Assembly (NCBI GenBank): GCA_964652265.1
Contig: CAZZAL010000003.1
Location: 1,438-65,437, forward strand
From: an uncultured Planctomycetia bacterium
GTDB taxonomy: Bacteria > Omnitrophota > Gorgyraeia > Gorgyraeales > Gorgyraeaceae
Direction of reading: 5' to 3'
DNA length: 64,000 nucleotides
Positions 47,122 through 60,709 of this stretch are shown here, one piece after another; position 1 is the stretch's first letter, and each line of letters starts with the position of its first letter. The translations under genes and the position numbers were made by a program. The notes under the pieces are model-generated. The model worked only from the letters and a program-made list of their open reading frames with translations. It was not told where the DNA came from and ran no database searches.

Positions 47122-47145
47122 TTAAGGCATCAGGTTATGCCTTAA
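47122..47145 (-). other. Hairpin spanning the ROK stop codon
   Basis: TTAAGGCAT (47122-47130), loop caggtt, ATGCCTTAA (47137-47145). The ROK TAA stop (47135-47137) sits at the loop/stem junction. No U-tract follows. Confidence 0.45.
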
Positions 47146-48373
47146 CAAATACATCCCTTATGACAACACTGGCAGCACCTAAAGCAACGGCATCTCTGCC
47201 AAGATGTGCTGGTATTATCTTCACTACATTAGCAGCCTCTTCAAAGGCCCACTTCCTTACTGTCCTTCTTAAAGGCTCTAAAAATAAACTCCCTGATTTC
47301 TCAATGCCTCCGCCTATTATAACTATCTCAGGATTAAATAAATTAGTAAGATACGCTACTCTTACGCCCAGATTCACAGCTGCATCCTCCAATAGTTCTA
47401 TTGCAAGCGTATCTCCTGATTTTGCAGCTTCTATTATACGTTCTACTGTTATACTATTCAGATCCTTGGTTGAAGTCCCGGCTATGCTGGTCTTGACCCC
47501 GCCTTCTTTTATAAGCTTTGTGGCCTGGCTTACAAGCCCAAGATCCAGTCCCAGGGGAAGTAAAAATGAAAAATTTTTCGAGACCTTTAAATACTCTCCG
47601 TTCCTGGGATAGTTAATGCGGATCTCTCCTGCTGAACCACTGGCGCCACAATAGATCCCTCCCTTTATAATGATCCCGCTTCCAACATCAGAATACATAT
47701 ATACAACATCCTGTATATCCATGGGGAGCGCGTGCATCTTTTCGCCAAAGGCAGCAAACGTAGCATCGTTTCCCAGAAAAGATGGTATGCCAAACTTCTG
47801 CTCAATAAGACCCTTTATGGATACATAGCTCGTGCGTATACCATTCCTGGTGGAATCCCTTACTGTGCCAAGGCTCTCATCCACTACTCCTCCCACGCCT
47901 ATCCCGACACCTTTGATTCTATCTTTGTAAACGCCTTTCTTGGCCATTAATTCCTCTATAAGATCGAGGGAGCCTTCAATGATCCTGTCCATGCTGTCTT
48001 TTTCCCTCTTCTTCTCTATCCTTGTTATTACCCTTCCTGAAAGATTTGTAATGACGCCTATCATGGTCGCGCCATTCGCTCCCATGTGCCCTAGATCAAG
48101 TCCTATCGCATAACCCTGATCGTCTCTTAATTTAACAAGAGAGGGTTTTCTGCCTCCCGAGGAAGCTTCCATGCCGCTCTCGATAACCAAGTTTTCATTA
48201 ATATAGGTATTTATATAATTTGAAACAGTTACTATATTAAGATCTGTGGTCTTCGAGATATCCGCCCTGGTGATAGGTCCATTTCTGCGAATGAGTTCCA
48301 GTATGGAAAAATTCTTCTTCTCGTGGTCTGAAAGAGAATGCCCTGCAAAAACTTGATTCTTTGTTATAGGCAT
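47135..48373 (-). CDS. ROK-family transcriptional regulator (N-terminal wHTH + sugar-kinase fold)
   Basis: wHTH FSILELIRRNGPITRADISKTTDLNIVTVSNYINTYINENLV. ROK fold (YAIGLDLG, GVGIGVGGVVD, LGNDATFAAFGE, GASGSAGEI). The usual His/CxCGxxGC zinc motif is not visible. Confidence 0.85.
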   Translation of the reverse strand: MPITKNQVFAGHSLSDHEKKNFSILELIRRNGPITRADISKTTDLNIVTVSNYINTYINENLVIESGMEASSGGRKPSLVKLRDDQGYAIGLDLGHMGANGATMIGVITNLSGRVITRIEKKREKDSMDRIIEGSLDLIEELMAKKGVYKDRIKGVGIGVGGVVDESLGTVRDSTRNGIRTSYVSIKGLIEQKFGIPSFLGNDATFAAFGEKMHALPMDIQDVVYMYSDVGSGIIIKGGIYCGASGSAGEIRINYPRNGEYLKVSKNFSFLLPLGLDLGLVSQATKLIKEGGVKTSIAGTSTKDLNSITVERIIEAAKSGDTLAIELLEDAAVNLGVRVAYLTNLFNPEIVIIGGGIEKSGSLFLEPLRRTVRKWAFEEAANVVKIIPAHLGRDAVALGAASVVIRDVFVKA

Positions 48374-48417
48374 GATTTGCCTCCTTTATTTGGTGCCGTG
48401 CGCACCGCGTATACTTT

Positions 48418-60214: not shown

Positions 60215-60246
60215 GCTTACTCCGATTTTGTTTCGGGTAGTTAAAT

Positions 60247-60582
60247 TTAATTAGCAATAAAAAGCCGGTTTATATCTTCGTTAAACTCAAGCGCAACGCC
60301 GTCTTTCTCGACCCGTACTACTTTTGCCTTTCCTGTAATGCGAGAAAACGGAAAATCCCTAGCTTCATCTCTTGGCACTGAAAGAGTTACAATCAACGTG
60401 TCCTCAGTCTTTATATTCCTAATAGTTATATCGCCTATATATGCTCCATTATAGCTCACGTTGATTGTAACTCCTTCCTGAGCCTCTCTTTTTCCTTCAC
60501 GCGTAAGACACCTGAGCTCAGCAGGAAGAGTCAAATCTAATCTTTTGAAGCTTCTCTTCTCTACAAAATCGCCTGTCTTCAT
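60247..60582 (-). CDS. Stand-alone PilZ-domain protein
   Basis: RxxxR (KRSFKRL) and (D/N)xSxxG (NVSYNG) motifs. I prefer the start at 60582 (MKTGDF, with GGAGGGGG upstream) over the tracked 60603. Confidence 0.75.
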   Translation of the reverse strand: MKTGDFVEKRSFKRLDLTLPAELRCLTREGKREAQEGVTINVSYNGAYIGDITIRNIKTEDTLIVTLSVPRDEARDFPFSRITGKAKVVRVEKDGVALEFNEDINRLFIAN

Positions 60583-60709
60583 TGTCACCCCCTCCAACGG
60601 CATTAATAGCTATTGTATAGATAATACCATAAACTACTTAATTTTAAAAGCTTTTTTTTACTTTTTTACTCTTTAGCTTCACAAATCTTGTATTGTAAAA
60701 AATGTAGAG

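Follow-up and report, generated by a model that had tools for sequence, protein, structure and literature searches.

The cluster and its surroundings

The window analysed here, a whole stretch of 64 kb, comes from a Candidatus Omnitrophota bacterium, and ten ORFs of interest lie on its minus strand between positions 47135 and 60603 (Table 1). The first-pass annotation had described ten co-directional genes with short gaps, making up a locus for the binding, degradation and import of a glycan. The ORF layout, the Pfam and NCBIfam identities of the products and the intergenic gaps of 4-79 nt agree with the first statement, and gene content with the second. One seeming overlap, between the symporter gene and the first permease gene, arises because the longest permease ORF, which reaches 57447, uses a TTG start; the public contigs call a 291-aa protein that begins 4 nt after the symporter stop.

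The intergenic stretches inside the cluster contain no terminator-like sites on the coding strand, and a scan for the sigma-70 consensus found promoter-like sites on both flanks. The site ahead of the PilZ gene is a candidate operon promoter; the stronger one beyond the ROK gene probably marks where the sugar cluster ends and a downstream efflux operon begins. The main context, missed in the first-pass annotation, is the very large gene that lies immediately upstream of the cluster.

Table 1. Features of the cluster and its flanks, listed from upstream to downstream on the minus strand
Feature	Coordinates	Strand	Basis
C-terminal part of very large gene	60710..64000	-	frame open to window edge
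Promoter-like site	60621..60648	-	106-nt gap ahead of PilZ; 9/12 sigma-70 consensus matches plus TG extension; consensus match only
Stand-alone PilZ, 118 aa, predicted c-di-GMP receptor	60247..60603	-	Pfam PilZ E=9e-7
Lipoprotein solute-binding protein (SBP), CUT1-type sugar ABC importer	58886..60214	-	SBP_bac_8 E=4e-38, SBP_bac_1 E=4e-35; LTGC lipobox
GPH-family MFS sugar:cation symporter, 500 aa	57365..58867	-	MFS_2 E=2e-62; TIGR00792 gph E=1e-48
ABC permease 1 (MalF/UgpA/GlcT-like)	56485..57360	-	BPD_transp_1 E=8e-18; NCBIfam GlcT/UgpA/MalF
ABC permease 2 (MalG/UgpE/GlcU-like)	55632..56480	-	BPD_transp_1 E=1e-15; NCBIfam UgpE/GlcU/MalG
Exported hydrolase-like protein, 767 aa (GH767)	53308..55611	-	signal peptide, TPR-like/helical N-terminal ~450 aa, C-terminal clan GH-A TIM barrel
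CBM-like lipoprotein, 236 aa	52518..53228	-	IASC lipobox, disordered acidic linker, one CBM-like beta-jelly-roll domain (residues ~65-236)
Clan GH-A hydrolase, 401 aa (GH401)	51245..52450	-	paralogue of GH767 catalytic domain; weak GH72/GH42 Pfam matches
Large outer-membrane beta-barrel protein (OMP)	48418..51243	-	941-aa ORF; called as 928 aa in public contigs
wHTH + ROK protein, 412 aa	47135..48373	-	ROK E=6e-33; HTH_24 E=4e-5
Strong promoter-like site	47045..47073	-	between ROK and TolC-like gene; 11/12 consensus plus TG extension; consensus match only

A conserved core and variable accessories

The ten genes had been taken as a single system; comparison with relatives does not bear this out. 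What recurs, in more than 100 fetched loci, is a six-gene core made up of the lipoprotein SBP, the two MalFG-type permeases, GH767, the CBM-like lipoprotein and GH401, around which the symporter, PilZ, the OMP and (in relatives) a GH94 gene come and go as variable accessories. The core keeps its order (SBP, permease, permease, GH767, CBM protein, GH401) in 33 of the 83 loci anchored on the OMP and in most lipoprotein-anchored loci longer than 6 kb, so that the arrangement is not a product of chance. The order persists at OMP identities as low as 37%, and in loci that have been rearranged (L046, L082, L128 and L134) the core genes stay linked. Judged from these loci, the operon is conserved across Candidatus Omnitrophota, often directly downstream of a giant gene.

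Predicted import across the inner membrane

The transport genes have the make-up of a CUT1 importer: a family-1 SBP accompanied by two MalF/MalG-type BPD_transp_1 permeases, whose best NCBIfam matches are UgpAE, GlcTU and MalFG. The first-pass annotation had pointed out that no ATPase is encoded with them, and the observation extends well beyond the cluster; neither an ABC-type Walker A nor an LSGGQ motif occurs in the 64-kb window or in the flanking DNA of 113 related loci that bear the cluster.

CUT1 oligosaccharide importers that share an ATPase are familiar, with MsiK in Streptomyces and MsmX in Bacillus; these are coupled to ROK-family or other repressors and, where cellodextrins are the substrate, to a cytoplasmic GH94 cellobiose phosphorylase. 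The Omnitrophota locus resembles them in its SBP_bac_1/8 protein, its two MalF/MalG-like permeases, the missing cognate ATPase gene, the ROK-type regulator and the GH94 of relatives. It differs in that the host is diderm, with an optional large OMP, and the SBP is a lipoprotein; moreover, regulation appears tied to c-di-GMP via PilZ, and the extracytoplasmic hydrolases are of an unnamed GH-A lineage. By analogy with known CUT1 systems, the permease pair would have to borrow an MsiK/MsmX-type ATPase encoded elsewhere.

Two accessories bear on uptake. Only the window's own contigs and L058 have the GPH symporter gene in this place; in other clusters it is elsewhere or absent. In this lineage it would add a second, ion-driven route. 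The GH94 of relatives has cellobiose phosphorylase as its nearest match (E=1.7e-152), and the window contains neither a GH94 nor another cytoplasmic glycosidase. In those other lineages the enzyme, being cellobiose-phosphorylase-like, may split the imported disaccharide in the cytoplasm, and its presence suggests beta-gluco-oligosaccharides as the putative substrate. The SBP was uninformative as a guide to substrate, as its closest solved relatives bind several different ligands, namely xylo-, chito-, arabino- and sophoro-oligosaccharides (E 1e-21 to 1e-14).

Twin hydrolases and a CBM-like lipoprotein

The first-pass annotation called the hydrolases twins, and they are true paralogues (34% identity, E=2e-63) that both retain clan GH-A catalytic residues. 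A check for missing residues found the Asn-Glu acid/base and the Glu nucleophile present in each: N562-E563 and E653 in GH767, N166-E167 and E276 in GH401. Homologues keep the motifs as well, GNEN in 29/30 and TEYG in 30/30 for GH767, GNE in 28/28 and TE[YF]G in 22/28 for GH401. These residues align with E143/E229 of GH158(Pro) and by homology match E137/E220 of BuGH158, members of a family whose acid/base and nucleophile have been experimentally defined (PMC7157763; PMC13195107); in GH158 the Asn-Glu pair follows strand beta4 and the Glu follows beta7.

GH158 is also the best PDB relative of both proteins, at 3e-13 for GH767 (1e-17, or more exactly 1.1e-17, with a family profile) and 2e-8 for GH401 (1.6e-13 with a profile); the alignment spans ~80-150 residues, and GH2 glucuronidases score nearly equal (2e-13). 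Assignment to GH2 fails on domain content. GH767 matches Glyco_hydro_2_C (E=7e-14; 52 bits against a cut-off of 21) without Glyco_hydro_2_N or Glyco_hydro_2, and its N-terminal region, with a weak TPR match in Pfam, is TPR-like instead of carrying the sugar-binding and Ig-like domains of GH2. GH401 has no GH2 match in Pfam and reaches 22.3 bits against the NCBIfam beta-glucuronidase model, whose cut-off is 544. The two appear to belong to an unnamed clan GH-A lineage whose closest solved relative is GH158, followed by GH2. Activity, substrate and location of both are predictions, whereas the catalytic residues are read directly from the proteins. The shorter enzyme had been described as membrane-anchored: the hydrophobic N-terminus is there, but the anchor is uncertain, a cleavable signal peptide being equally possible.

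The 236-aa lipoprotein gave neither a Pfam match nor a sequence match in the PDB, and its assignment comes from structure prediction. The jelly-roll domain was modelled by AF2 with a pLDDT of ~90, and its top Foldseek matches are to CBM30, CBM8, CBM11, CBM29, CBM4 and CBM16 (E down to 8e-7, TM up to 0.69). The first-pass label of CBM-like is thus upheld at the level of fold: the protein is predicted to fold like the beta-glucan-binding CBMs (CBM30/11/8/4), and may hold the glycan. It has 1,809 homologues, most of which, among those examined (~383 aa), have the domain twice in tandem.

Predicted regulation

Both c-di-GMP-binding motifs of PilZ are intact (RxxxR as RSFKR at residue 17, [D/N]xSxxG as NVSYNG at residue 48). 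The PilZ gene stands at the head of the cluster in many relatives, and the ROK gene ends it in most. The ROK protein has the wHTH expected of a regulator, in keeping with the first-pass call, and is predicted to be a sugar-responsive transcription regulator of the NagC/Mlc type; the NCBIfam equivalog models for NagC and Mlc match it far below their cut-offs. A motif search found in it neither the kinase motif DxGxT nor the structural Zn site CxCGxxGCxE, the corresponding segment reading YCGASGSAGE with a single Cys. In two relatives (L002 and L003) PilZ is fused to the regulator as PilZ-wHTH-ROK. Because of this fusion, the wHTH-ROK protein may be supposed to control expression, and c-di-GMP to tune activity or expression through PilZ. 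The locus suggests an unusual regulatory tie between c-di-GMP and a ROK-type sugar regulator.

The outer-membrane barrel

The OMP begins with a signal peptide, one TPR-like motif (residues 50-81), a disordered acidic linker (102-185) and a beta-rich region (209-450), and continues as a barrel of ~25 predicted strands (453-941) with a C-terminal Phe, a residue found in 89/93 homologues. The AF2 model has a pLDDT of 78.8 and a pTM of 0.72. More than 426 homologues were found, nearly all labelled Omnitrophota. Foldseek returns nothing beyond large barrels of a generic kind (TBDTs, LptD, SlpA; TM 0.2-0.28), and a family profile searched against the PDB finds TPR proteins only. Across the window protein and ten diverse members Pfam gives only weak matches of porin type; the protein is modelled as a large barrel without a close solved relative.

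Two known identities were considered. LptD was suggested by the N-terminal beta-rich domain, a barrel of ~26 strands and envelope-biogenesis neighbours (LepB, PgsA, PlsY; LptE, BamD). It was rejected: an OstA/LptD Pfam signal is absent from 11 family members (E<=0.05), the profile finds no LptD in the PDB, Foldseek TM is only 0.19-0.28, and neither an N-terminal TPR nor tandem paralogues are typical of LptD. A SusC-like or other TonB-dependent transporter, a 22-strand barrel with a plug and a TonB box, was rejected likewise, with no TonB_dep_Rec or Plug Pfam match in the window protein and 10 diverse members, and TM to TBDTs of just 0.21-0.24.

The first-pass statement that the parts are not SusC/SusD-like therefore holds, with no TonB_dep_Rec or Plug match for the barrel, no SusD/RagB match in Pfam for any of the ten proteins, and a jelly-roll instead of an all-helical fold in the lipoprotein. 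In logic the locus is still close to the 1,3GUL of B. uniformis, which contains GH158 (PMC7157763): each has a glycan-binding lipoprotein, an endo-acting clan GH-A enzyme, an outer-membrane barrel and a regulator. Unlike 1,3GUL, it has neither a SusC-like TonB-dependent transporter nor SusD; inner-membrane uptake is by an ABC importer rather than by MFS alone, the regulator is ROK rather than HTCS, and the likeness to its GH158 is confined to ~130-150 residues around the catalytic strands.

The first-pass annotation gave the barrel the step of outer-membrane passage, and this is the claim that comparison weakens. The protein may be a general Omnitrophota OMP, a phylum-specific major porin or structural envelope protein that is merely syntenic with the sugar genes in some lineages; the functional unit would then comprise only SBP, permeases, GH, CBM, GH and ROK. 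About 50 of the 83 fetched homologues lie outside any GH/ABC cluster, most of them in a conserved block of housekeeping genes (PheA, DAHP synthase, LepA, LepB, PgsA, PlsY), and the homologue in V. archaeovorus adjoins signalling and efflux genes. Conversely, only 13 of the 29 lipoprotein-anchored clusters with enough flank to be informative include the OMP, and in the close relative L092 GH401 is followed directly by ROK. This comes close to the generic porin that the first-pass annotation had itself named as telling against its reading; the Pfam matches, too, are weak and of generic porin type. Set against this, the gene lies inside the cluster, tens of nt from GH401 on one side and from ROK or GH94 on the other, across clades as distant as 37-46% identity; it stays beside the cluster when the order is rearranged (L046, L082); embedded copies fall on several deep branches of an NJ tree; and tandem paralogues in some genomes (L038, L039, L048) fit functional specialisation. 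A general OMP outside the sugar system is accordingly a substantial possibility, though not the favoured one.

A different use of the same parts would be the synthesis or remodelling of the cell's own exopolysaccharide, as by Bcs, Pga or Pel systems, with PilZ as the c-di-GMP switch, the OMP as a TPR-containing export porin and the hydrolases processing the product in the manner of BcsZ or PslG. BcsA/BcsC/BcsZ and PslG are parts of c-di-GMP-controlled exopolysaccharide systems, and the combination of PilZ, TPR-OMP and clan GH-A hydrolase resembles them; so does the N-terminal TPR element followed by a C-terminal barrel, as in BcsC, PgaA and AlgK-AlgE. One OMP family member has a weak YjbH match in Pfam, and the window OMP has a sub-threshold NCBIfam match to a PEP-CTERM-associated OMP. 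Exporters of the BcsC/PgaA type, however, have a long multi-TPR domain, 16-18 strands and an adjoining synthase, whereas the window OMP has a single TPR-like motif and ~25 strands, and Pfam finds no glycosyltransferase or synthase, polysaccharide co-polymerase or flippase in the cluster. The transporter is a binding-protein-dependent importer, the genes added in relatives are for a catabolic phosphorylase and a sugar symporter, and the remainder of the locus is directed at catabolism and import. An exopolysaccharide system is rejected on gene content and already largely refuted; we consider it highly improbable.

A proposed uptake pathway

The reading we prefer, with a probability of about 0.7, is a catabolic glycan-uptake operon that is Omnitrophota-wide and commonly lies directly downstream of a giant gene; its most likely function, as predicted from the sequences, is the c-di-GMP- and ROK-regulated uptake of beta-linked gluco-oligosaccharides. 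As predicted retaining clan GH-A hydrolases, the exported TPR-bearing GH767 and its shorter paralogue would cleave a beta-linked glycan, either in the periplasm or on the cell surface, and the lipoprotein SBP would capture the oligosaccharide products for import through the MalFG-type CUT1 permease pair. Where it is present, the large OMP may pass glycan fragments across the outer membrane, which is the least supported step.

The choice of substrate is a guess, because the kinship of the hydrolases with characterised enzymes is distant (~130-150 residues align with GH158). The hints diverge: GH158 points to a beta-1,3-glucan, GH94 to beta-1,4 linkages, and the relatives of the SBP to xylo-, chito- or sophoro-oligosaccharides. 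For these Omnitrophota classes the core metabolism is predicted to be sugar transport that supplies glycolysis and acetogenesis, and the predicted energy metabolism of the phylum runs on imported sugars (PMC10066038).

The giant gene and the source of the glycan

An exact look-up of the PilZ protein in public contigs gave the size of the upstream gene: in contigs with an identical PilZ its product has at least 4,023 aa and runs to the contig end. The C-terminal part contains a CheR-type methyltransferase domain (Pfam CheR, E=1e-15) and an amino-acid-kinase-like segment (Pfam AA_kinase, E=6e-5). The tail ORF shows no similarity to the giant-gene C-termini of related loci, so these ends are not conserved between lineages. 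Elsewhere the cluster is downstream of genes for 15,237 aa (L001) and 45,376 aa (L002), and in 17 of 34 informative loci the upstream ORF is co-directional and either takes up the whole flank or is longer than 1,000 aa. LptE and BamD are encoded nearby, both in L002 and in the window.

The outline of the locus is already published. West-Roberts et al. (2023; 10.1101/2023.11.21.568195, Fig. 7C) report that the giant genes of Omnitrophota are followed by conserved pilZ genes and by genes for glycosyl hydrolases and SBP-dependent carbohydrate transporters. The region they depict is of the same type as ours and from the same phylum: one or more PilZ genes adjoin the giant gene, and the SBP, permease and hydrolase genes come next. 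They find GGDEF domains to be frequent in giant proteins, and these could feed the PilZ proteins. A 2026 preprint (10.64898/2026.06.07.730766) reports GH2-type flanks of giant genes and a weaker carbohydrate-import signal beside them. The description in the accessible parts of both is at Pfam level, and these parts mention neither the CBM-like lipoprotein, the GH-A pair with GH158-like catalytic residues and the large OMP, nor the ROK regulator, the PilZ fusion, GH94 and the universal lack of an ATPase. The enzymes, binding protein and barrel are uncharacterised families.

The association invites the view, following the hypothesis of West-Roberts et al. (10.1101/2023.11.21.568195), that the cluster serves a predation apparatus as its uptake arm: the giant protein would attach to and degrade the prey envelope, and the cluster would digest and import the prey cell-wall glycans set free, not free beta-glucans from the environment. 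This departs from the uptake operon proposed above only in the source and type of the glycan. The position downstream of giant genes here and in L001 and L002, the large or flank-filling ORFs, the published association and the possible GGDEF-PilZ link all favour it. The similarities of the CBM and GH94 point rather to glucans, and Pfam finds no murein- or pseudomurein-specific enzyme in the cluster, such as a lysozyme, lytic transglycosylase, amidase or GH73/GH23; half of the informative clusters have no large ORF ahead; and the import signal beside giant genes is the weaker one noted in the 2026 preprint (10.64898/2026.06.07.730766). Feeding on prey envelopes through this cluster is therefore somewhat unlikely.

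Wider implications

Omnitrophota are uncultured, ultra-small and apparently host-dependent or predatory. The predicted uptake operon, physically tied to the giant genes for which the phylum became notable, is probably their main glycan-acquisition system. Knowledge of the substrate would show what Omnitrophota eat, prey envelope glycans or free beta-glucans, and so provide a direct test of the predation hypothesis.

A bolder reading, which we consider doubtful, joins the CBM-like lipoprotein, the two GH-A paralogues and the ~930-aa barrel into a new outer-membrane machine for glycan capture, TonB-independent, non-Sus and specific to Omnitrophota, functionally coupled to the giant protein and switched by c-di-GMP through PilZ or PilZ-wHTH-ROK. 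If true, it would feed on prey-released or environmental glycans, and c-di-GMP would directly control an operon for sugar uptake and catabolism.

Three uncharacterised families are offered for biochemistry: the clan GH-A lineage, the CBM-like domain, very strongly conserved with ~1,800 homologues, and the large barrel. The hydrolase lineage of GH401 and GH767 occurs in Spirochaetota too.

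Gene content and conservation of the cluster

The ten co-directional ORFs of the first-pass annotation are all present on the minus strand where it had placed them, and the reading of glycan uptake that it attached to them is partly supported. What stands is a conserved, ATPase-less, non-Sus operon, probably for glycan uptake; what has to be amended is its composition, a six-gene core with variable accessories, together with the role of the outer-membrane barrel protein (OMP), which may be general.

Domain scans recognized a PilZ protein, a family-1 solute-binding protein (SBP) with an LTGC lipobox, a GPH-type MFS symporter, two MalF/MalG-type permeases, a 767-aa protein (GH767) with weak TPR and a GH2-type TIM barrel, a 401-aa protein of clan GH-A (GH401), a 941-aa ORF (the OMP) with one TPR motif and weak beta-barrel signals, and a winged-HTH ROK protein as the last gene. 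A 236-aa lipoprotein lies between the two hydrolases. Intergenic gaps are 4-79 nt; an apparent overlap of the MFS and permease genes was an artefact of the longest-ORF start. By consensus scan, no intergenic gap of the cluster holds a terminator-like site on the coding strand; promoter-like sites (consensus matches only) are found upstream of PilZ and, stronger, between ROK and the TolC-like gene that follows it. Together these would fit a PilZ-to-ROK transcription unit, separate from the downstream efflux operon. The lack of an ABC ATPase that the first-pass annotation noted is borne out: the motif occurs nowhere in the 64-kb window, nor in any of 113 cluster-bearing loci within the flanks fetched.

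Homologues of the OMP are nearly all labelled Candidatus Omnitrophota. Anchoring on the OMP gave 83 loci (80 from a scan of one genome per species, three from an earlier exact protein look-up). The order PilZ-SBP-permease-permease-GH767-lipoprotein-GH401-OMP-ROK, in some cases continuing into TolC-MFP-RND, is found in 33 of them, including loci whose OMP is only 37-46% identical to that of the window; two of these loci (L046 and L082) are rearranged with linkage kept. The reverse comparison, with the lipoprotein as anchor, shows an invariant core of SBP, both permeases, GH767, lipoprotein and GH401. ROK usually accompanies this core, and the presence of a GH94 phosphorylase, PilZ, the OMP and the MFS symporter varies from locus to locus.

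The gene immediately upstream of the cluster reaches 15,237 residues in one relative (L001) and 45,376 in another (L002). The corresponding window ORF runs uninterrupted to the window edge, and its tail contains an amino-acid-kinase-like segment and a CheR methyltransferase domain; public contigs with an identical PilZ carry the ORF on until the contig breaks off, giving a product of at least 4,023 aa. Comparison of the tail with the C-termini of the giant genes that precede this cluster in other lineages detected no similarity. In half of the informative loci (17/34), the upstream flank is filled by a co-directional ORF, or that ORF exceeds 1,000 aa. The outline of the cluster and its association with giant genes were already reported (10.1101/2023.11.21.568195), and a 2026 preprint (10.64898/2026.06.07.730766) describes giant genes flanked by two GH2-type enzymes with no Sus-type architecture. 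The present analysis places the hydrolases by family and locates their catalytic residues, assigns a CBM fold to the lipoprotein and outlines the structure of the OMP; it also adds the cellobiose-phosphorylase-like GH94 of relatives, the PilZ-ROK fusion, and the absence of the ATPase from every locus examined.

Hydrolases, lipoprotein and substrate

The two hydrolases had been called twins; GH401 is indeed a paralogue of the C-terminal GH767 domain (34% identity, E=2e-63). Their closest solved relatives are two GH158 endo-beta-1,3-glucanases, matched with family profiles at 1.6e-13 and 1.1e-17, and GH2 glucuronidases follow closely (2e-13). N166-E167/E276 of GH401 and N562-E563/E653 of GH767 align on the GH158 acid/base and nucleophile, identified through mutagenesis in BuGH158 (PMC7157763) and, in GH158(Pro), from covalent intermediates that had been trapped and from comparison of structures (PMC13195107). 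As these residues align and the motifs are kept in orthologues, both proteins are very probably active retaining clan GH-A glycosidases. The GH158 alignment spans only ~80-150 residues and GH2 accessory domains are absent; we treat the pair as a putative distinct, unnamed lineage, with 2,180 representatives at 50% clustering. It is not confined to Omnitrophota, since three ~1,040-aa ‘hypothetical proteins’ of Spirochaetota MAGs (P0250, P0254 and P0255) carry a GH401-type catalytic domain at the N-terminus.

The lipoprotein has no Pfam match and no PDB sequence match. Most examined homologues (~383 aa; 1,809 homologues in all) carry a ~170-aa domain doubled in tandem; that of the window has a single copy behind an acidic linker. 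Its AlphaFold model is confident over residues 65-236, and the best Foldseek matches are CBM30, CBM8, CBM11, CBM29, CBM4 and CBM16 (E down to 8e-7, TM up to 0.69), so the earlier label ‘CBM-like’ holds at the level of fold. The matched CBMs are type B modules, whose ligands are beta-glucan or mannan chains.

In several lineages a GH94 gene lies between OMP and ROK or elsewhere within the cluster; the window has none. The relatives' GH94 resembles cellobiose phosphorylase (1.7e-152) far more than laminaribiose phosphorylase (3e-43). This similarity and those of the CBM fold favour beta-linked gluco-oligosaccharides as the probable substrate. As to linkage, resemblance to GH158 would suggest beta-1,3 and the GH94 beta-1,4; comparison of the SBP was uninformative.

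Regulation

Both the RxxxR and the NxSxxG motif are intact in the PilZ protein of the window. In two deeper-branching Omnitrophota the terminal regulator is one PilZ-wHTH-ROK polypeptide (L002:15584-16987 and L003:15373-16920), an architecture of which we know no described example. The fusion implies that the separate PilZ and ROK genes of the window are functionally linked, with a probable c-di-GMP input into a catabolic locus. The window ROK protein retains the wHTH but has neither the DxGxT motif of kinases nor the zinc site of ROK proteins, and is thus a predicted regulator, not a kinase.

The outer-membrane barrel protein

The OMP model (pLDDT 78.8, pTM 0.72) runs from a signal peptide through one TPR-like helical element, a disordered acidic linker and a beta-rich region to a barrel of ~25 strands, which starts at residue 453 and takes up the rest of the chain. 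A C-terminal Phe, as expected for BAM substrates, is present in 89 of 93 homologues. Foldseek returned generic large barrels only (TM 0.2-0.28), and the family profile matched only TPR proteins in the PDB; in Pfam, LptD, OstA, BamA and TBDT domains were never matched among the family members scanned, and porin matches were scattered and sub-threshold.

One possibility is that the OMP is a dedicated glycan channel, another that it is a general Omnitrophota outer-membrane protein. In favour of a dedicated channel, cluster-embedded OMPs are spread over several deep-branching parts of the family tree, and linkage to the cluster outlasts rearrangement. Against it, the OMP lies outside the sugar cluster in 50 of the 83 OMP-anchored loci, mostly after a housekeeping block ending LepA-LepB-PgsA-PlsY; in V. 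archaeovorus its neighbours are signalling genes on one side and an efflux operon on the other. It is present in just 13 of the 29 informative clusters. It can be lost from the cluster, as in a close relative (L092, Ga0180007_10008978; lipoprotein 70% identical), where GH401 is followed directly by ROK-TolC-MFP. We put the odds of a dedicated channel somewhat short of even; the OMP may instead be general.

In L038, L039 and L048, two paralogues of the OMP family are only a few kb apart. At housekeeping-context loci, a ~1,070-aa family with no Pfam domain (f2; L074:12581-15781, minus strand, with equivalents in 32 loci) lies tail-to-tail with the OMP homologue, and a conserved ~115-aa family with no domain (f4) lies just upstream.

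Wider window

Within the window's clade, the TolC-MFP-RND operon keeps its place beside the sugar cluster. Its TolC-like protein has a TonB_C-like domain (residues 60-127, E=3e-7) at the N-terminus, before the OEP repeats.

Features of the window outside the ten-gene cluster
Feature	Position	Strand	Remarks
Upstream ORF	60710-64000	-	
TolC-like outer-membrane factor	45182-47023	-	Directly downstream of ROK; OEP repeats; heads the operon
MFP	43892-45133	-	Same operon
RND pump gene	40090-43821	-	Same operon
RND pump gene	36896-40042	-	Same operon
T2SS protein F and pseudopilin J-like gene	33592-35691	-	
Two adjacent ORFs, ~283 aa each	19355-20203, 20220-21074	-	Weak OMP_b-brl (E=7e-7); Chlam_OMP (E=1e-3); possible small porins
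LptE and BamD/YfiO-like lipoprotein	8208-9693	-	Same order immediately downstream of the L002 cluster

West-Roberts et al. (10.1101/2023.11.21.568195) had already observed T2SS genes close to giant genes. All long ORFs of the 64-kb window are on the minus strand, an unusually long run of genes in one orientation, and GC skew is negative in each 2-kb bin.
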